From contig CAYVCQ010000001.1 of assembly GCA_964450405.1 (NCBI GenBank), positions 91,858 to 155,857 on the forward strand: a stretch of DNA of 64,000 nucleotides. Reading direction: 5' to 3'. Positions 3,078 to 59,300 of the stretch are shown here, one piece after another. The position numbers and the translations under genes are program-made. Within the stretch, counting starts at the first letter, position 1. Each line of letters begins with the position of its first letter. The DNA is from an uncultured Leptospirales bacterium (lineage in GTDB: Bacteria; Spirochaetota; UBA4802; UBA5550). Under the pieces are notes generated by a model, which worked only from the letters and a program-made list of their open reading frames with translations, was not told the origin of the DNA and did no database searches.

Positions 3078-3489
3078 ATATTATTTCATTTCAGCAGCAC
3101 TTTCGTCCTGCTCTCCTGTATCGTGATAATTCAACAAGTATTCAACTAGTTGCATATATAAAAGCTGTTGTGATAATGTCAAGAAATTTTACGATTTTTT
3201 TAGGGGGGAAAGATTTTTGATTTTAGGCATAAATCATGATTAAGGGACTAGAGGATTTATTTGATTGAAGATAGAGTTAACAATACTGCATCATGAAAAT
3301 CTTTTAATCATGCGAATCACGATTCAGGTAGAAGATTTTATTTTATAGACAGCACCATAATACTCATTTAATTTTGTTGCCTTAACGGTTTGAGAGCTTT
3401 AAATGATCTGGTTTTAAACGGGTACCAAAATTAAAAGTCATATCAAACTCAAATCTGACAATTTGTTTTAGAGATATAAGGATATTATA

Positions 3490-4848: not shown

Positions 4849-5076
4849 AATAACGAACTAACTGCTTTCACCCTCCCCTAACCCCTCCCATCAAGGGAGG
4901 GGAAAAGCATCATGAAAATCCTTTAATCAAATGAATCACGGTTCAGACAAAATACAGAAACTGAAAACATCTTGAATCAACTTTTTCCACTCACGACAAT
5001 TTATTCCCTTGAAAAAGTCCTGAATTTTAAGTAAATTAAATTCCACAATATCTCACCAAATGCAGGAGCTCTATAA

Positions 5077-11531: not shown

Positions 11532-11615
11532 TAATTCTTTACTGCTTGCAGTTAACATTGTATCAAACCATGACTCAGGCAGGAGCTTTCCCAAAAGTCT
11601 GATATTTCCGCACTT

Positions 11616-11718
11616 GTCATTCCGGTTTTGCAGCATCCATTCTTGCAAATACCGGAATCTCCTGATGGAATCAGTGGTATGAGATTCCGGCATTCCGTTT
11701 CACTACAGCCGGAATGAC
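11616..11718. repeat. Family-A palindromic intergenic element (MITE-like), copy 1 of 3
   Basis: GTCATTCCGGTTTTGCAG...CTTGCAAATACCGGAATCTCCTG...GATTCCGGCATTCCGTTTCACT.CAGCCGGAATGAC. 10-bp terminal inverted repeats GTCATTCCGG/CCGGAATGAC and two internal TTCCGG..CCGGAA hairpins. Closely similar copies at 35523..35629 and 40193..40295. Confidence 0.8.
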
Positions 11719-11790
11719 AGCGAGCGGACTTTTGTGGCAACCGATGTTTGATAAACAGTTTTTAAAATACTAGCAAACACAGGAGCATCA

Positions 11791-13482: not shown

Positions 13483-14121
13483 TTAAAAAGAACGTACAGC
13501 CCGTACCGAATTATTAGATGTCTTAATACCGTTCGTCTGATTACCAATCCCAAAGCCCTGATCCCACGCATTATTTGGATTGGCAATGTCCTCAGATGAA
13601 CTCCAATAGTAGCCGGTAGTAAACCCTCCAATACCGTTAGCACCGAGGTTAACCCATATCTCATTGAGTTCATCTTTTGATGGAAGGAACCAGTCGCTCT
13701 TATTCCCTCCATGATAATCTCTGCATATTTTCGCGGCACTTGCCCCGCCGCTATTCTGGAATATTATTGCATCTGTGTTTGAAGATCCCATGCCAATCCC
13801 GGCTGGCAAAGCACTCACTCCGTTTGCAAATGCGCTGATATTCGTACTAAATGTTTGTGACACTGACAGATCCAATGTGGCCACTTCCAGTCCATGCAGC
13901 CCCCCACTCGTAACATAAAACACAATCCCGCCGCCGGGACCAGTATCTCCTATTTCCAATTTGTTCTGTGCAACCGAATACATATCCTCCCGTTCACAGG
14001 AGAAAAGTAAAAACAACGATGCAAATATCATCAGCGGGATTAATCTGCTGAAATAAATTTTTGATCTTCGGGGAGTTTTTGAAGATAAAGTTAAAAATAT
14101 ATTAAATTCTGAACTTTTCAT
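13483..14121 (-). CDS. DUF1566-like (Lcl C-terminal domain type) lipoprotein, paralogue 1
   Basis: Signal peptide with lipobox RLIPLMIFASLFLLFSC. Motifs GDTGPGGGIVFYV, SDWFLPSKDELNEIW and YWSSSE. ATG at 14121 aligns with the GTG start of paralogue 2. The track ORF extends to 14145. Confidence 0.55.
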   Translation of the reverse strand: MKSSEFNIFLTLSSKTPRRSKIYFSRLIPLMIFASLFLLFSCEREDMYSVAQNKLEIGDTGPGGGIVFYVTSGGLHGLEVATLDLSVSQTFSTNISAFANGVSALPAGIGMGSSNTDAIIFQNSGGASAAKICRDYHGGNKSDWFLPSKDELNEIWVNLGANGIGGFTTGYYWSSSEDIANPNNAWDQGFGIGNQTNGIKTSNNSVRAVRSF

Positions 14122-14235
14122 GAAATTACCGTCCATACTTAACACTTATCATATTAGAATAACAAAAATCATTTTTTTTGTCAATATTGATTTTGTTAAT
14201 TTATGGCATAAAGAGATTCCAAACATTTGTGTTAA

Positions 14236-14403: not shown

Positions 14404-15048
14404 TTAAAATTTTCGGATTGCTCGAACATTATCTGTTGCAACCTTGCCTGAAGAAGTAAGTGAACCATTAGTAAAATCTATATCGTAAGCCATAACTCCG
14501 CTCTCTGTGGAACTCCAGTATCTATAATTGCTAAAATTTCCAACACCATTATTAACATTCGATCCATTATTAACGAGATTATCCCATATAGCAGTTAATT
14601 CATTTTGTGAAGGAAGAAACCAGTCGCTCTTCTCCCCATATACTAATTGATCGCACAAAAATCCAGCACGATCTGTTTTGCTAGTAACATCCCCGGTAGC
14701 ATCATTTAAATTGCTGTTCAACCAGGCCACAATAATTGCAGTATTTGAACTCCCTGAGCCTATCCCGGAATTTGATGTGCCTATTGTTAATGATGACGAA
14801 CCCCACTGTTTACCTGCCCATTCTGTTGATACCGGCGCAACCTCCAGTCCATGAGCCCCTCCATCCGTAACATAAAAAACAATCCCGCCGCCGGGACCGG
14901 TGTCGCCTATAGCCAGCTTATGTTGTGTGAAGGAATACATATCCTCTCGCTCACAGGAGAAAAGTAAAAATAACGATGCAAATATCATCCGCGGGATCAA
15001 GCGGGTGAGATAAGAAGATTTAGATATAATTAATTCTGAACTATTCAC
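14404..15048 (-). CDS. DUF1566-like lipoprotein, paralogue 2 (tandem duplicate of 13483..14121)
   Basis: Same lipobox RLIPRMIFASLFLLFSCEREDMYS and the same motifs GDTGPGGGIVFYVT, SDWFLPSQNELTAIW and YWSSTE. The 5' 120 nt are about 85% identical to paralogue 1 at DNA level. Probable GTG start at 15048; the track ORF runs to a TTG at 15096. Confidence 0.55.
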   Translation of the reverse strand: MNSSELIISKSSYLTRLIPRMIFASLFLLFSCEREDMYSFTQHKLAIGDTGPGGGIVFYVTDGGAHGLEVAPVSTEWAGKQWGSSSLTIGTSNSGIGSGSSNTAIIVAWLNSNLNDATGDVTSKTDRAGFLCDQLVYGEKSDWFLPSQNELTAIWDNLVNNGSNVNNGVGNFSNYRYWSSTESGVMAYDIDFTNGSLTSSGKVATDNVRAIRKF

Positions 15049-15157
15049 AAATTGCCTTCCAGCTTTTTTTCTTAACAGAAAACAGAGATTACCCAATCAA
15101 TAATAGTGTCAACATGAAATTGTCGTTAATTAAAGCAATTTACAAAATGTTTAGAGC

Positions 15158-20415: not shown

Positions 20416-20507
20416 TATTTACACCCTATTTTTTTAAAGTTTTAATTTATAGTTAAAATGTGCAGCCATCCCTCAGTTATTTTCAAGAACTATTTTTATT
20501 ATTAGAT

Positions 20508-20611
20508 GTCTGAACCTTGATTCGCAGGATTCAGGGATTTACATGATTTAGAGAGAGTTAACTTCCGGTAAATCATGTAGATCCTTTAATCAAGTGAATC
20601 AAGGTTCAGAT
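20508..20611. repeat. Family-B element, complete copy with both terminal inverted repeats
   Basis: Left arm GTCTGAACCTTGATTCGC. Right arm GTGAATCAAGGTTCAGAT. Nested inner inverted repeat GATTTACATGATTTA/TAAATCATGTAGATC. Core AATCCTTTAATCAAGTGAATCAAGGTTCAGA. Confidence 0.8.
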
Positions 20612-20800
20612 AATTTACCGTTTGCAAAAAGTTATATTTATTCAGTCACCTGCCTGAACATGATTTCGATGATTCAAAAGATTACCATGATTAGACTATA
20701 GACCTCTTTCCACTACAGGTGAAAAAAATATATACAATGCTCTGAAAACAAAATTCAAATAAACCAGCGGGATTCCATGTATTATAAAAATTTCTCTATT

Positions 20801-20842
20801 TAATCCTGTAAATCCCTTAATCCCCGGAATCCTGTTCAGACA
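20801..20842. repeat. Family-B repeat, half copy
   Basis: aatcctgtaaatcccttaatccccggaatcctgttcagacaa. Confidence 0.7.
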
Positions 20843-20972
20843 ATTGACTTGATAAAATTTCATAAACAATAAATCTTCTTCTGTAAAAAATCAAAAAAAA
20901 AAAGGAATTTTATTGCAACAATACAATATAAAGCAGATCATAGTTAACAACTAAACAGTTGAAGGAATAAAC

Positions 20973-21626: not shown

Positions 21627-21796
21627 CACTACTTATTTTACATACATATTGTCAGAACACGATTCGTGGGATTCTATAGATTACCAAGATTAGACTACGT
21701 ACCACTTTCCTTTATAGAAATCAAAATGAGCATAGAACTCTTAGACAAAATTTTATTATTCACCAGGATTCCTTAGTTTGTAAAGAGAATCCAATT

Positions 21797-21892
21797 TAAT
21801 CGTGTAAATCCTTTAATCCCCGGAATCCTGTTCAGACAGGTGACAGAATAAATTATGAAAATTTTCAACCAGGTGAATCACGGTTCAGACAA
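21797..21892. repeat. Family-B repeats, two adjacent half copies
   Basis: taaatcctttaatccccggaatcctgttcagacagg and caaccaggtgaatcacggttcagacaattgg. Confidence 0.75.
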
Positions 21893-24289: not shown

Positions 24290-24406
24290 TTTAATTTTCC
24301 TGAAAAAAATTTTGCTGCTGCCGGCAAACAGTAGCGGTTTATCTTATATGTTTTGAGATGAACAAATTTACTATTCTAAATTCAGTTTACAGAAAGTAAT
24401 CATTTT

Positions 24407-24470
24407 CTGAACATTGCCGGAACAGGATTTAAATGATTCAATAGATTACCGTGATCCTGTTCAGACAGGT
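24407..24470. repeat. Family-B element, variant with both arms
   Basis: ttctgaacattgccggaacaggatttaaatgattcaatagattaccgtgatcctgttcagaca. Confidence 0.65.
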
Positions 24471-40139: not shown

Positions 40140-40192
40140 ATTGACGCTATCACTAAAGGGGTCTGATTTTTGATTCTTTTATTTCAGCATTT

Positions 40193-40295
40193 GTCATTCC
40201 GGTTTTGCAGCGTACATTCTTGCGAATACCGGAATCTCCTGATTAAATCTGGCGTATGGGATACCGGCATTACGTTTCACTTCAGCCGGTATGAC
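40193..40295. repeat. Family-A palindromic element, copy 3
   Basis: GTCATTCCGGTTTTGCAGCGTACATTCTTGCGAATACCGGAATCTCCTG...GATACCGGCATTACGTTTCACTTCAGCCGGTATGAC. Confidence 0.8.
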
Positions 40296-40650
40296 AGCTA
40301 GTAAACTTTTAGTTCATCCGCAAAATAGCATTCAATTTAAACCTGAAAAAAATAATTCCTAACAAAACTGGACTTAAAATATCCAACTTATGTAACAATA
40401 CACCACAGCATTTTTCATATTAAAAAATGGAGTTTAATATGAAAAATGAAAATATAAATGAAAACCCTATTCTTTCCGGAATACCTGTCGAATTTGAATG
40501 TGACGAGCCATGGAGAAAAAAAAGACTTTCGTGCTCAGGTGCGGGGATAGTTGAAAAAAATTTTGACCGAAGACATTTTGAACATATGACAAAATATCAT
40601 GGCGGAAATTCATCTGATGGAATCGAAAATGAAGAAGAATCAGGCGGGAA

Positions 40651-41424: not shown

Positions 41425-41603
41425 GGGTTTTTCCTTTTGAGTACAATAAATAATTTAAGACTGAGAGTGCAAGTAAATAGCGGATTATATTGAGATTTTT
41501 TATTCTACACTTCCAGTGTTTCGGTATGACAGCATTTCGTCCGAACCATGATTTGCATGATTTTTGGATTAGCCTGATGTTGCGGGGAAAACATTTTTGT
41601 ATT

Positions 41604-41647
41604 TAATCAAGGAAATCATTTAATCCTTGAATCAGGGTTCAGACAAC
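41604..41647. repeat. Family-B repeat, half copy
   Basis: aatcaaggaaatcatttaatccttgaatcagggttcagacaa. Confidence 0.7.
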
Positions 41648-45667: not shown

Positions 45668-45765
45668 AGCGCTCCGCGCTGTGCTAAAAATGGGGGATTA
45701 CGGGGGCGTTGCCCCCGTAATCCCCCATTTTTAGCGTATGCGAAGCATACGCACTCTCGAAAATA
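45668..45765. other. Three consecutive perfect hairpins in a 730-bp divergent intergenic region
   Basis: gcacagcgc-tcc-gcgctgtgc (9-bp stem). ctaaaaatgggggattacgggggc-gtt-gcccccgtaatcccccatttttag (24-bp perfect stem). cgtatgc-gaa-gcatacg (7-bp stem). Confidence 0.7.
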
Positions 45766-47423: not shown

Positions 47424-47764
47424 ATAGAGATGAAATGATGATTCTCAAAAATAAAACTTTTCCGGCACCTCTATCACTTCGTGACATTTCACTCATCAGC
47501 CCCCTATCCCCCGGAGGGGGCAACGAGTATATCAGTTATATCGCTGCTAGTTTTATTCTTATCATTTCTTTTACAATTCCAATACTCATCCCGAATTCAT
47601 CCCTGTATCTATCGTATTCTTTTTGTATATCATGAATTAACTAAAAATTTCCCTCTTGAGTGCCCCCTCCGGGGGACAGGGGGCCGGGGAGTACGGGAAA
47701 CAACGGGTTCTTTTCAGAAATTTTTATCTGTAAATTACTGGGTAAGGAATCCAATCCCATACCC

Positions 47765-53526: not shown

Positions 53527-55413
53527 ATGAAAAGGATAATCATCACATTTGTCACAATTATACTGGGTTCTTCTAGTATTATCTTTGGCATGGAAGTATA
53601 TGACAGTGTTACTATTTTTATTCGCTATGCGGATACAATTAAAAGTGAATGCATGTCCGGTGACTGCATAAACGGAAAAGGAGTAGCGCAGTTCGGTGAA
53701 ACAAATTTACACTACGATGGGGATTTTAAAAACGGCAGGATGGATGGAAATGGTACATTAACCAACCAGGGCTGGTCATATACCGGCCAGTGGGAAAAGG
53801 GACTTATGCATGGCCAAGGCATTCTAACTTATGAAGATGGGAAAACTGATGAAGGCAGCTTTCTTATGGGAAGGTACACAGGAAAATGTGAAACGGGCGA
53901 TTGTAATAGCGGTAAAGGTACACTCACCTGGGCTGATGGCAAGAAGTATGAAGGTTATGTAAAAGATGGCATGATGGATGGAACCGGTACATTAACATGG
54001 GATATTTTAATGTACCCCAAGGGTGCAATAATATATACAGGTCAGTTTACAAAAGGCCTGCGTAACGGACAGGGAACAATGACTGATCCCAACAATACCT
54101 ATAATGGCCAATGGAAAGATGATAGTAAGAATGGCCTGGGAACATTAGAAAGTTCAGGGTATACCTATAAGGGGGAATGGAAAGATAACATGATGCACGG
54201 ACAGGGAGTAATGTTATACTCTGACGGCAGCAGGGATCAGGGACGCTTTGTTAAAGGCAGATATACAGGTAAATGTGAAGCAGGTGACTGTAAAAACGGC
54301 AAAGGCACACTTACGTGGGCCACTGGTGGAAAATATACCGGTGAAATTAAAGACGGCATGATGAATGGAACAGGTACTTTTATCTGTAATAATTATACCT
54401 ATACCGGTCAGTTCAGGGATGGCCTCATACACGGCAAGGGTAAATTCATTGGCAAGAAAAATGATATAGTTATGCCAGTTGAAGCGAAATACGATGGAGA
54501 GTGGAAAGAGGGTGTACTGGTAAAGGCCACAGGAACCATTACAAACTACGCTGGAACTTATACAGGTGAATTTAAAAATGGAAAAATAAACGGAAAAGGA
54601 ACAATGATTTTCAAAAACGGTTCCAGCTATAAAGGACAGTGGGAAAACGAAAAAATGCACGGTGAAGGTGTTTATAAATATGCCGATGGCAAAACCGATT
54701 CAGGAAATTTTAAAAACGACAGATTCCTTGGCAAGTGCATATCCGGCAACTGTACTAACGGCAAAGGCACGGCAATCTGGTCAGACGGTTCTAAGTATAC
54801 AGGTGAATTTATAGAAGGAGAAAAACGCGGTCAGGGCATAATGATTAATGCTGACGGCAGCAAATATGTGGGTGAATTTTTCGGTGGTCAATACTACGGC
54901 AAGGGAACACTTACAGAAAAAGATGGTACAGTTAAAACAGGACTTTTTTCTTTAGGTGATTATGATGGCAATTGTAAAAAGGGTGACTGTGAAAACGGTT
55001 ATGGTGAATTTGATTATGCGGACGGCACATCCTATAAGGGTGAATGGAAAGACGGACACTATAACGGTAACGGCACATATAAAGGTAATGAATCAAAAGA
55101 TAATGATCCCGAAGAGGATTACGACGACGGTATGCATCATATTTATTACAATAACAGTACATATATTGGCCAGTGGAAAGACGGACAGAAAGATGGTGAA
55201 GGACTTTACACAGGTTCAGGCGGTGATACATATGACGGTCAATGGAAGAATGACAAAAAGAATGGCAAGGGCACAATGGAATGGACTGACGGTTATAAGT
55301 ACATCGGTGATTGGAAAGATGACAAGCAAGATGGTCTGGGAATTTTTTATAATTATGACGGGACAATATCCCAGCAGGGCCGCTGGAAAGATGGTAAATT
55401 CATCGGAGAATAA
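53527..55413 (+). CDS. MORN-repeat protein (628 aa) built from repeated CxxGDCxNGKG / GxYxGxWKDxxxxGxG modules
   Basis: N-terminal TM/signal. At least 20 MORN-like units (YTGQWEKGLMHGQG, YEGYVKDGMMDGTG, ...). Seven recurrences of GKC(E/I)(T/S)GDC(N/K)(S/N)GKGT. Confidence 0.7.
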   Translation: MKRIIITFVTIILGSSSIIFGMEVYDSVTIFIRYADTIKSECMSGDCINGKGVAQFGETNLHYDGDFKNGRMDGNGTLTNQGWSYTGQWEKGLMHGQGILTYEDGKTDEGSFLMGRYTGKCETGDCNSGKGTLTWADGKKYEGYVKDGMMDGTGTLTWDILMYPKGAIIYTGQFTKGLRNGQGTMTDPNNTYNGQWKDDSKNGLGTLESSGYTYKGEWKDNMMHGQGVMLYSDGSRDQGRFVKGRYTGKCEAGDCKNGKGTLTWATGGKYTGEIKDGMMNGTGTFICNNYTYTGQFRDGLIHGKGKFIGKKNDIVMPVEAKYDGEWKEGVLVKATGTITNYAGTYTGEFKNGKINGKGTMIFKNGSSYKGQWENEKMHGEGVYKYADGKTDSGNFKNDRFLGKCISGNCTNGKGTAIWSDGSKYTGEFIEGEKRGQGIMINADGSKYVGEFFGGQYYGKGTLTEKDGTVKTGLFSLGDYDGNCKKGDCENGYGEFDYADGTSYKGEWKDGHYNGNGTYKGNESKDNDPEEDYDDGMHHIYYNNSTYIGQWKDGQKDGEGLYTGSGGDTYDGQWKNDKKNGKGTMEWTDGYKYIGDWKDDKQDGLGIFYNYDGTISQQGRWKDGKFIGE

Positions 55414-55425
55414 CCCGATGTAAAG

Positions 55426-55832
55426 ATGTACCACATAAAGGAGTTACTGATCATTTTAATAATGCTAATCTTGGGCTATTCTGCAGTAATTTTTGACCAC
55501 AATCTTGAAAGCGATGAATCTCAACTCATCTCAGAACTACAGTTTCCTGATGCTCAATGTACATCAGGAAACTGTATCAACGGACAGGGAGTCAAGCTGT
55601 TCGGTTACACTGGCAATGCAGGCAACAGGCAATTCGACCGTGTAAAGTATGAAGGTGAATTCAAAAACAGCATGATTCATGGAATCGGAACATTGACCAC
55701 AGCTGACCGCACGTTTATGGGTGCATGGAAGGATGACATGATGCACAGACAGGGTACGATGGTTTAATCGACGGCAGTAAAAATGAAGGACTCTTTGTGA
55801 TAGGAAGGTACTGCGGTAGATACGCTTATTAA
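55426..55832 (+). pseudogene. Truncated MORN-repeat paralogue with a -1 frameshift near 55755
   Basis: Frame 1 ends ...AWKDDMMHRQGTMV*. Frame 3 continues YDGLIDGSKNEGLFVIGRYCGRYAY*, which matches the downstream module of the neighbouring gene (..SDGSRDQGRFVKGRYTGKC..). Confidence 0.55.
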
Positions 55833-58250: not shown

Positions 58251-58291
58251 GTCTGAACCATGATTCGTATGATTGAAGGATTAAATGATTT
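58251..58291. repeat. Family-B repeat, half copy in reverse orientation
   Basis: gtctgaaccatgattcgtatgattgaaggattaaatgattt. Confidence 0.7.
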
Positions 58292-58449: not shown

Positions 58450-58833
58450 TTAATCATTCTGAGCTTGAAGGTAATCAATTTTTCTAATTCTAATTGTCTT
58501 TGGTGTTACCACGGTAAATGCCTGCAATAACTCATTACTGTAATTTTTCAGAACACTTGATATAAGCTCAGCTTTTTCGTTATTTGATATTCCAAAAACA
58601 CGAAAAAGCACAACTCCCGTCGTAATCATTTTTTTACGGAACACGAGTTCTCCGAAATCCTTATCAGTGGTAAGTAAAAGTGCATCATTACGGTTAGCAA
58701 TTTCCATAACTTTATCGTCAGAAATTCCACGATCCATATCAAGGACATACCAGATTTTATATCCTTCATTTTTAAGAGCATCGGCAATGGGTCTGTCTAT
58801 GCTTTCATCCAATATCAGTTTCATTTTAAGCAC
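58450..58833 (-). CDS. DUF5615-like (PIN-like) protein, the putative toxin-like partner of the DUF433 protein
   Basis: 127 aa. N-terminal ..KLILDESIDRPIADALKNEGYKIWYV.. is typical of this family. 8-nt overlap with the upstream DUF433 gene. Confidence 0.5.
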   Translation of the reverse strand: MLKMKLILDESIDRPIADALKNEGYKIWYVLDMDRGISDDKVMEIANRNDALLLTTDKDFGELVFRKKMITTGVVLFRVFGISNNEKAELISSVLKNYSNELLQAFTVVTPKTIRIRKIDYLQAQND

Positions 58834-59053
58834 TGACTGGATATATGATATCGGATTTTAATGCCCTTGCCGCAAAATTTAGTGCAGCAAAAATTGATTC
58901 CTGAGTCAGTTGAGGATGGGCCTCAAGAATCTGAGCAAAAGATTCTCCATAAGAAAGCTTTTCAAGGATTAATTCTACAGTTATTCTTGTCCCTGCTACT
59001 ACAGGTTTACCCATCATTATTTCCGGATCAGATATTATTAAATTTAAATTCAT
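58826..59053 (-). CDS. DUF433-domain protein (putative antitoxin-like partner)
   Basis: ..ISDPEIMMGKPVVAGTRITVELILEKL.. is the DUF433 signature. Start at the internal ATG is preferred; the track runs to 59098. Confidence 0.5.
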   Translation of the reverse strand: MNLNLIISDPEIMMGKPVVAGTRITVELILEKLSYGESFAQILEAHPQLTQESIFAALNFAARALKSDIIYPVSA

Positions 59054-59267
59054 AAGACTCACCTTGTAAAAAGTCGTATTCATTATTTTAAAAAACAATG
59101 CTATACTATTAATGTCTATAATTTAAGCATCTATACTTTATTCTGTCCATAAAAAAACATGTTCCAAGCTTTAATTCGCTTGATTGAAGGTCTTTCATGA
59201 TACATGACTGAAATCACCTGATTTTTGAATTAACATGACAGAATTACAAATTCTATCTTCAATCAGG

Positions 59268-59300
59268 AAAATCCTTTAATCCCTTAATCATGGTTCAGAC
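59268..59300. repeat. Family-B repeat, half copy
   Basis: aaaatcctttaatcccttaatcatggttcagac. Confidence 0.7.

Follow-up and report, generated by a model that had tools for sequence, protein, structure and literature searches.

What are the short palindromic repeats that recur between the genes of the 64-kb stretch of DNA analyzed here (the window), and what spreads them? The original prediction was of a dispersed repeat of the MITE/REP type with at least 11 copies, among them a complete one at 20508-20611. Here, we identify the repeat unit as a directional half-element of ∼45 nt. The palindrome, which had been taken as the unit, consists of two such halves; solo halves make up approximately half of the copies and are conserved as well as paired ones. 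We lean towards the explanation that the repeats of the window are gene-less, MITE/REPIN-like derivatives of a widespread selfish element associated with genes for GxxExxY proteins. A selfish element with these ends has apparently not been described so far.

Several observations support the repeat family in the window as real. The pattern AATCN5AATCNNGGTTCAGAC, searched with up to 3 mismatches, has 9 matches in the window compared to 0.26 expected, and none of 100 shuffles reached 9. An nhmmer profile of the half-element detects 13 halves, with E-values down to 1e-9, at ∼10 loci over 56 kb (Table 1). In a total of 1.24 Mb comprising the window and fetched loci, the same profile gave 377 matches and in dinucleotide-shuffled or reversed sequence none. 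Full copies are 61 to 190 nt long and have inverted termini. In agreement with the original prediction, the copies are dispersed, extending over 3.2 to 59.3 kb of the window, and every one is intergenic, between long ORFs. All copies that had been listed are genuine; the list lacked three arms (41539-41579, ∼21651-21700 and the decayed 3232-3288), and with the first of these included, 41539-41644 is also a complete palindrome, the second in the window. The copy at 20508-20611 has the terminal inverted repeats and nested inner palindrome ascribed to it and reads GTCTGAACCTTGATTC...GAATCAAGGTTCAGA(T). It scores as a gapless, 51-nt inverted repeat that is 80% complementary and forms a single long hairpin when folded as ssDNA (−28.2 kcal/mol, z = −8.7 compared to shuffles). 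The expectation that the repeats cause assembly problems was also borne out: two independent Logan contigs from the same strain (L001 and L002) both stop at window position ∼20582, inside this palindrome.

Table 1. Positions of repeat copies, half-elements and a bracketed gene pair in the window, and of AATTC-variant ends at three GxxExxY loci
Feature	Sequence	Position	Strand	Description
Decayed palindromic copy	Window	3232..3329	.	Left arm 3232-3288: GATT units, no terminus; right arm 3289-3329 ends GATTCAGGT
Solo half-element	Window	4908..4948	+	Best consensus match; four AATC units + GGTTCAGAC
Complete palindromic copy	Window	20508..20611	.	Left arm 20508-20551: GTCTGAACC + four GATT units; 18-nt loop; right arm 20568-20611: AATC units + GGTTCAGAT
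190-nt subfamily copy, conserved interior	Window	20652..20841	.	Left arm 20652-20700 (GCCTGAAC...); right arm 20800-20841 (...CCTGTTCAGAC)
Second 190-nt subfamily copy	Window	21651..21837	.	Left terminus degenerate (GTCAGAAC); 87.6% identity to L221 6707-6908
Partial solo right arm	Window	21846..21890	+	Tandem, just after the 21651-21837 copy; ends GAATCACGGTTCAGAC
Internally deleted 190-nt subfamily copy	Window	24405..24466	.	Left arm with three GATT units joined straight to right terminus CCTGTTCAGAC
Second complete short palindrome	Window	41539..41644	.	GTCCGAACC...GGTTCAGAC; in ABC/MBL spacer
Solo half-element	Window	58251..58291	-	Terminus (GTCTGAACC) faces left
Two-gene DUF433/DUF5615 (PIN-like) toxin-antitoxin-type cassette	Window	58450..59098	-	Between outward-facing halves 58251-58291 and 59258-59300
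Solo half-element	Window	59258..59300	+	124 nt upstream of cysK
Halves detected by nhmmer, first six	Window	3289-3327+, 4908-4950+, 20507-20551-, 20577-20610+, 20659-20693-, 20800-20843+		Strand given after each position
Halves detected by nhmmer, other seven	Window	21796-21838+, 21870-21892+, 24423-24455-, 41543-41579-, 41604-41646+, 58249-58290-, 59260-59300+		Strand given after each position
AATTC-variant ends	L176	156-225, 2932-2963, 3431-3463		
AATTC-variant ends	L181	2938-2970, 3389-3420		
AATTC-variant ends	L189	3402-3434		

The window is an ordinary chromosomal setting with nadE, hisD, cysK, chemotaxis receptor genes and tRNA-Phe, and its NadE is 88% identical to proteins of "Spirochaetota bacterium" MAGs. 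It also contains a second, unrelated dispersed repeat with three intergenic copies (11598-11733, 40175-40310 and 35524-35571; 136 nt at 85% identity), the 48-nt core of which, GTCATTCCGGTTTTGCAG...ACCGGAATCTCCT, has an inverted repeat inside. Two other structures, a perfect palindrome at 45683-45735 with 25-nt arms (GCTAAAAATGGGGGATTACGGGGGC and its complement) and a G+C-rich 32-nt inverted repeat at 47491-47692 with its arms 138 nt apart, are likewise unrelated to the AATC family. The remaining large direct-repeat families in the repeat scan of the window are due to two adjacent paralogous genes for Lcl_C-domain proteins (13483-14145 and 14404-15096; DNA ∼80% identical) and a gene for a MORN-repeat protein (53527-55767).

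The half-element has a precise anatomy. It contains four AATC motifs with a spacing of 9-8-9 nt; the final motif is fused to GGTTCAGAC(AA), and the motifs start at −15, −24, −32 and −41 relative to the terminus GGTTCAGAC. Most halves contain three to four AATC units; of 342 halves, 313 have the start of their last AATC at a distance of exactly 15 nt from the terminus, and AATC-to-AATC distances of 9 nt (n = 563) and 8 nt (n = 211) reflect a preference for the 9-8-9 register. In 148 anchored copies, information is concentrated in two parts, the AATC tetranucleotides and GGTTCAGAC with its adjoining AA, and similarity among copies ends abruptly directly after GGTTCAGACAA. A half-element by itself is a direct array and is not self-complementary. 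Neighboring halves preferentially have their termini facing outward (68 "-+" vs. 17 "+-" arrangements), mostly with gaps of 0 to 117 nt, and tight outward-facing pairs account for 114 of 239 halves. Full units composed of two halves have a median length of 107 nt, and the TT...AA that flanks them prolongs the inverted repeat of the ends. The interiors of gene-less copies vary from 0 to 120 nt in length, are highly variable in sequence, and gave no ORF remnants in blastx. At three loci (L104, a Calditrichota MAG, ∼1-400; L139, 1402-1588; L018, 6300-7040), palindromic units form head-to-tail arrays in which they are 7 to 28 nt apart, similar to BIME-like clusters.

The pattern of conservation points to recognition of the half-element by a protein. 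There is almost no variation in the AATC motifs and the terminus, and the spacers vary both among copies in the same genome and from one arm of an element to the other; at 16 variable positions, identity is 0.55 within an element compared to 0.36 between loci. Moreover, solo halves, which are incapable of forming a hairpin, are conserved equally to paired halves, and G·U-compatible mismatches have no strand bias (31 and 39). These findings argue for protein recognition rather than base-pairing and suggest that the half-element is a phased row of short sites read by a protein, a pattern unlike that expected from structural selection on an RNA or hairpin. At the spacers, complementarity between the arms is often poor; for this reason and because of the unbiased G·U-compatible mismatches, we rejected an RNA or hairpin constraint. 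The elements also lack the features of a terminator, a function that had been suggested for testing. Intrinsic terminators have a GC-rich hairpin and a T-run; here, AA rather than a T-run comes after the terminus on either strand, and a terminator scan found no terminator-like site at the elements. At the gathering threshold, Rfam 15 detects only the tRNA-Phe in the window and no family for the elements, and permissive settings add only sub-threshold matches to generic miRNA hairpins. Finally, in 64 full copies, direct repeats of 2 to 8 nt are not found above the shuffled-partner control, i.e., the elements are not flanked by target-site duplications.

Comparison to related genomes points to turnover of the copies. 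In the closest available relative, GCA_964419435.1 (DNA ∼80% identical), the START/cation-efflux spacer, which in the window (20445-20936) contains the copy at 20508-20611 and three more halves, consists of 231 unrelated, element-free nt (L221). Similarly, the ABC/MBL spacer is 304 nt long and includes the palindrome at 41539-41644 in the window vs. 77 element-free nt in this relative. The relative nevertheless carries 190-nt subfamily copies at other, nonorthologous positions: the window copy at 20652-20841 aligns to 21651-21837 of the window and to L221 6685-6908 and 9706-9951. Because elements are missing from orthologous spacers and copies are present elsewhere in the relative, the family is dispersed and turns over between species. 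The ends are also present in OW818666.1, a relative from the Spirochaetota. One half, at 59258-59300 upstream of cysK, is kept at the orthologous site (L217 4248-4287), and a TTGACA box just downstream of it is conserved; the region beside this half differs, with the DUF433/DUF5615 pair in the window and a DUF3303 gene in the closest relative. At ∼80% identity, the spacers have diverged to the extent that they cannot be aligned. Comparison with the closest relative gave no exact empty site, the indels being larger than the elements, and element boundaries are, therefore, not confirmed by empty sites.

The ends are distributed far beyond the Spirochaetota. We searched 596 Gb of sequence, with each species represented by a single genome, for AATC-N4-5-AATC-N4-5-AATC-NN-GGTTCAGAC, a pattern of 21 specified bases for which 1 to 2 chance matches are calculated in a data set of this size. 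The pattern occurs at at least 120 loci (at least 150 matches) in at least 13 phyla, where the loci are a sample rather than a census and groups were assigned by record title. Bacteroidota contribute at least 64 loci, including cultured Mucilaginibacter, Chitinophaga, Spirosoma, Pontibacter, Segetibacter and Paraflavitalea, followed by Poribacteria (at least 14), Desulfobacterota (at least 9), Chloroflexota (at least 7), Ignavibacteriota (at least 5) and Nitrospirota (at least 4). Fibrobacterota, one "Williamsia" MAG and unclassified "bacterium" records account for at least 3 loci each, Spirochaetota for at least 2, and Armatimonadota, Acidobacteriota, Planctomycetota, Cloacimonadota, Calditrichota and Gammaproteobacteria for at least 1 each. 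Complete genomes with the ends include Paraflavitalea speifideaquila CP135920 and Poribacteria OZ244616. With an end sequence common to at least 13 phyla, the repeat is not species-specific and, contrary to what had been proposed, does not make a useful genomic signature. If coding regions of relatives are set aside, the window matches the at least 120 pattern-derived loci at the nucleotide level only in the palindromic element itself: positions 20509-20623 are 77% identical over 116 nt to a palindromic copy in Spirochaetae bacterium HGW-Spirochaetae-5 (L113 2186-2298). Among the matches listed, 89% of the copies are intergenic and the neighboring genes are unrelated. No transposase, recombinase or integrase family recurs near the ends among the at least 120 loci listed, and none was found in the window. 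A set of 2.9 million viral contigs contained only 14 matching stretches, and we therefore rejected a phage or plasmid as the vehicle. Neither the repeat nor its connection to GxxExxY was described in any text found by full-text literature searches, the coverage of which is partial so that an earlier description is possible. Searches with the end sequences returned unrelated matches only, several of them papers on Neisseria; the Neisseria uptake sequence, GCCGTCTGAA, overlaps GTCTGAA, and we take this overlap to be a coincidence.

The ends are linked physically and evolutionarily to GxxExxY genes. Among the matches listed, only one small ORF recurs at the inner side of the ends, and it codes for a protein of ∼125 aa that matches TIGR04256 ("GxxExxY") and PF13366, of the PD-(D/E)XK type. 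As an independent test set, we used 80 GxxExxY genes from metagenome contigs chosen by protein similarity alone. Ends are present in 61 of these 80 loci, with an outward-facing end within 250 nt upstream of the gene in 40, downstream in 44, and on both sides in 26. Within 250 nt of the gene, the density of ends is 3.32 per kb compared to 0.14 per kb elsewhere in the same loci, corresponding to a 24-fold enrichment. The orientations agree with the prediction: 40 "-" and 20 "+" ends are upstream, and 47 "+" and 15 "-" ends are downstream. A gene-bearing unit is ∼475 bp, contains a gene of ∼125 codons, and has its termini facing outward. In the compact units of L089 and L123, the last GATT abuts the start codon and the stop codon lies within the AATC array. 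In the copies that encode P0020, an upstream KilA-N gene terminates in the left end and a downstream MmeI-type restriction-modification gene starts directly after GTTCAGACA; all 10 contexts displayed (24 contigs read) have this same operon, and because the context is always the same, this copy shows no sign of recent movement. Doubled left termini lie just upstream of the GxxExxY genes in L131 and L162, and in L193 the gene is flanked by whole palindromes and not by single arms. No GxxExxY gene is present in the 64-kb window or in ∼110 kb of relatives.

Variation in the ends follows variation in the protein. In L176, L181 and L189, AATTC replaces AATC in every unit of both arms. The GxxExxY proteins encoded at these loci are mutual nearest relatives (82 to 87% identity vs. 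at most 76% to all others), and the AATTC variant is confined to this one protein clade. L176 also contains a gene-less palindrome with the same AATTC variant 2.7 kb away. Because both share the variant, gene-bearing and gene-less copies in the same genome act as a single system. Simple linkage could also explain why AATTC is inherited together with one protein clade.

GxxExxY proteins form a family of 22,502 clusters at 50% identity (E up to 0.001), in the alignments of which a D...ExK triad (D71, E81 and K83) is invariant. PF13366 was listed as a family of unknown function with multiple interphylum transfers in a 2012 superfamily survey (PMC3424549). A PDB sequence search found no relative of GxxExxY. 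Because the AlphaFold model is of moderate confidence (pLDDT 71) and a Foldseek search with it against PDB returned nothing significant, the predicted nuclease function is based on Pfam PF13366 and the conserved triad. Tandem two-domain fusions of 250 to 275 aa with two matched stretches exist (P0392, P0397, P0407, P0410, P0435, P0450, P0455 and others). These fusions fit with a dimeric enzyme and suggest that single-domain GxxExxY proteins act as dimers. Some GxxExxY units are wedged in restriction-modification or defense operons (L224-L233, gene 2001-2420; L089/L123; L154/L169), either between a KilA-N and an MmeI-type gene or between genes read as hsdS-like and hsdR-like. In these operons, the stop codon of the preceding gene falls within the left end, and the ATG of the next gene comes immediately after the right terminus. 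Membership in a known defense system was rejected, as PADLOC gave no match save a very weak Cas4 similarity of one divergent member.

Our preferred explanation can be phrased as a working model. Two outward-facing ends bracket either a GxxExxY gene or, in the copies of the window, a short noncoding interior. A multimeric protein, for which the GxxExxY nuclease acting in trans is the most probable candidate, would bind along the AATC array, with the motifs serving as equivalent sites, and cut or exchange strands at the sharply defined terminus. In this way, copies would be moved or copied without target-site duplication, and gene-less copies would be propagated by GxxExxY; junctions of moved copies would fall exactly at TTGTCTGAAC...GTTCAGACAA. 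A nuclease alone is insufficient to explain rejoining or integration, for which one may speculate that a cruciform is resolved at the base of the palindrome or that copying is mediated by repair. A bolder version, which we advance only tentatively, is that GxxExxY proteins are the mobilizing enzymes of an unrecognized class of minimal transposons of ∼475 bp and of its gene-less derivatives. According to this version, a small dimeric PD-(D/E)XK nuclease would line up on the phased AATC sites and cut at the palindrome base, e.g., by resolving an extruded cruciform, and the element would be released or copied without a footprint.

The main rival to the preferred explanation invokes two separate parasites. 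In this scenario, GxxExxY would be an invader resembling homing endonucleases: it would cleave palindromes that lack a gene and, when these are repaired, be copied into them with the arms as homology, and the repeats would spread otherwise. An ORF that lies exactly between the arms and fills the interior is what such an invader would leave, and the lack of target-site duplications and of ORF remnants in gene-less interiors is compatible with it; the doubled left termini in L131 and L162 suggest insertion into existing ends, and whole palindromes rather than single arms surround some genes, as in L193. We still consider this scenario unlikely. Gene-less interiors vary in length and sequence and, hence, offer no conserved central target, solo halves are as conserved as paired ones, and the conservation of AATC register and terminus across phyla would be left without a reader protein. 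The other readings are less likely. That the elements are cis elements useful to the host, i.e., arrays for nucleoid or regulatory proteins or hairpins for mRNA stabilization or processing, with a secondary GxxExxY association, strikes us as quite improbable. In favor of it, 7 of the 13 halves in the window point at a start codon 93 to 163 nt away, the half upstream of cysK is kept at its orthologous site together with the TTGACA box, and the motifs are under purifying selection in every copy. However, among the at least 120 loci, the elements are not preferentially oriented toward downstream genes (same strand in 66 cases vs. opposite strand in 76), which led us to reject a promoter-proximal regulatory element; neighboring genes are unrelated; a T-run, an Rfam family and RNA-type strand asymmetry are all absent; elements are missing from orthologous spacers of the closest relative; and the 24-fold enrichment at one selfish-looking gene family is hard to explain in this way.

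An ordinary lineage-restricted MITE descended from an insertion sequence with a DDE transposase, as originally envisaged, would account for small, AT-rich, intergenic hairpins with terminal inverted repeats and for the similarity of the 190-nt subfamily over its full length at several sites. It has very little probability in our view, given that 64 full copies lack target-site duplications, that no transposase family recurs among the at least 120 loci listed or in the window, and that the ends, the conservation of which spans at least 13 phyla, have the form of arrays with internal repetition and not of simple inverted repeats. To the idea that the ends are attC-like or Xer-like sites at which a site-specific recombinase swaps small cassettes, we give the least credence of all. 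It draws on the outward-facing halves around the DUF433/DUF5615 pair (proteins of 90 aa and, for the DUF5615/PIN-like one, 127 aa) and on the different neighborhoods of the cysK half in the relatives. This pair may be cargo or may owe its place to coincidence; in L044, a distant outward-facing pair simply flanks recR, showing that distant pairs can be coincidental, and the same may be true of the toxin-antitoxin "cargo." Integron attC sites have RYYYAAC...GTTRRRY cores, an integrase and cassette arrays in one direction; here, GTTCAGA breaks the GTTRRRY core at position 4, copies are scattered among housekeeping genes, no integrase or recombinase was found nearby, and GxxExxY is the sole recurrent cargo among the matches listed.

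Among known systems, the closest analogue of the elements is REPIN/RAYT, with bacterial MITEs next and transposon ends that have several subterminal binding sites third; each differs from the elements in at least one defining test. The assignment to the MITE/REP type holds in that the copies are dispersed, intergenic and hairpin-forming, and fails on features that define MITEs and REPs. REP/REPIN elements and their RAYT transposase were reportedly described by Nunvar in 2010 and by Bertels and Rainey in 2011. As in REP/REPIN systems, the repeats are short, multicopy and intergenic, the replicating form would be a hairpin-folding inverted doublet, inverted copies bracket the gene of an associated protein, target-site duplications are lacking, solo units are common, and inverted doublets prevail. 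By contrast, REP sequences are species-specific, 20- to 40-nt imperfect palindromes tagged by a GTAG-type head, whereas the ends described here are directional arrays of four AATC motifs and a terminus that are conserved across phyla. The partner also differs: no gene for a Y1/HUH RAYT flanked by repeats was seen, and the flanked gene codes for a ∼125-aa TIGR04256/PF13366 protein, predicted to be a PD-(D/E)XK nuclease, in place of the HUH/Y1 transposase of REPs. Moreover, RAYT is a single, vertically inherited gene, while GxxExxY is a huge, horizontally moving family.

With MITEs such as Correia/NEMIS, RUP and ERIC, the elements share a length of 60 to 200 nt, a noncoding, multicopy and dispersed nature, terminal inverted repeats, hairpins, intergenic locations and assembly breaks. 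They differ from MITEs by lacking target-site duplications and a parent with a DDE transposase, only the GxxExxY gene sharing the ends among the loci listed, by the phased array in their ends, and by their cross-phylum distribution. The transposon ends bound by IS607 TnpA and Tn7 TnsB and those of Mu contain multiple subterminal protein-binding repeats. The likeness consists in several equivalent short direct sites beside a defined terminus and, for IS607, in the absence of target duplication; however, IS607 does not have inverted ends, the transposases of these systems are absent here, and the sites described here are 4-nt cores with a period of 8 to 9 nt. The intervening sequences of 23S rRNA contain small ORFs bracketed by inverted repeats, and genes for PD-(D/E)XK homing endonucleases can be free-standing. 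Both resemble the GxxExxY units in having one tiny ORF, for a nuclease or a protein without known function, inverted repeats, and a sporadic distribution with insertion free of duplications, and differ in the protein family and in that the elements described here are mostly gene-less and between ordinary genes. Neither of them is known to have array-type ends. The window copies have the AATC register and the GGTTCAGAC terminus that characterize the ends of the proposed GxxExxY-associated element.

In practical terms, the 45-nt end would, if our explanation holds, serve as a simple marker for annotation, explain some of the contig breaks in metagenomes, and flag intergenic spacers with quick turnover between related species. 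The natural AATC and AATTC variants are a ready-made pair for specificity swaps. If our explanation is correct, it would provide a function for GxxExxY, a very large "unknown" family of 22,502 clusters with many horizontal transfers. It would also reveal a new mode of DNA movement that operates without a canonical transposase or target duplication, in the bolder version a new transposition chemistry in at least 13 phyla, and unite the repeats of Bacteroidota, Poribacteria, Desulfobacterota, Chloroflexota, Spirochaetota and others in one common family.
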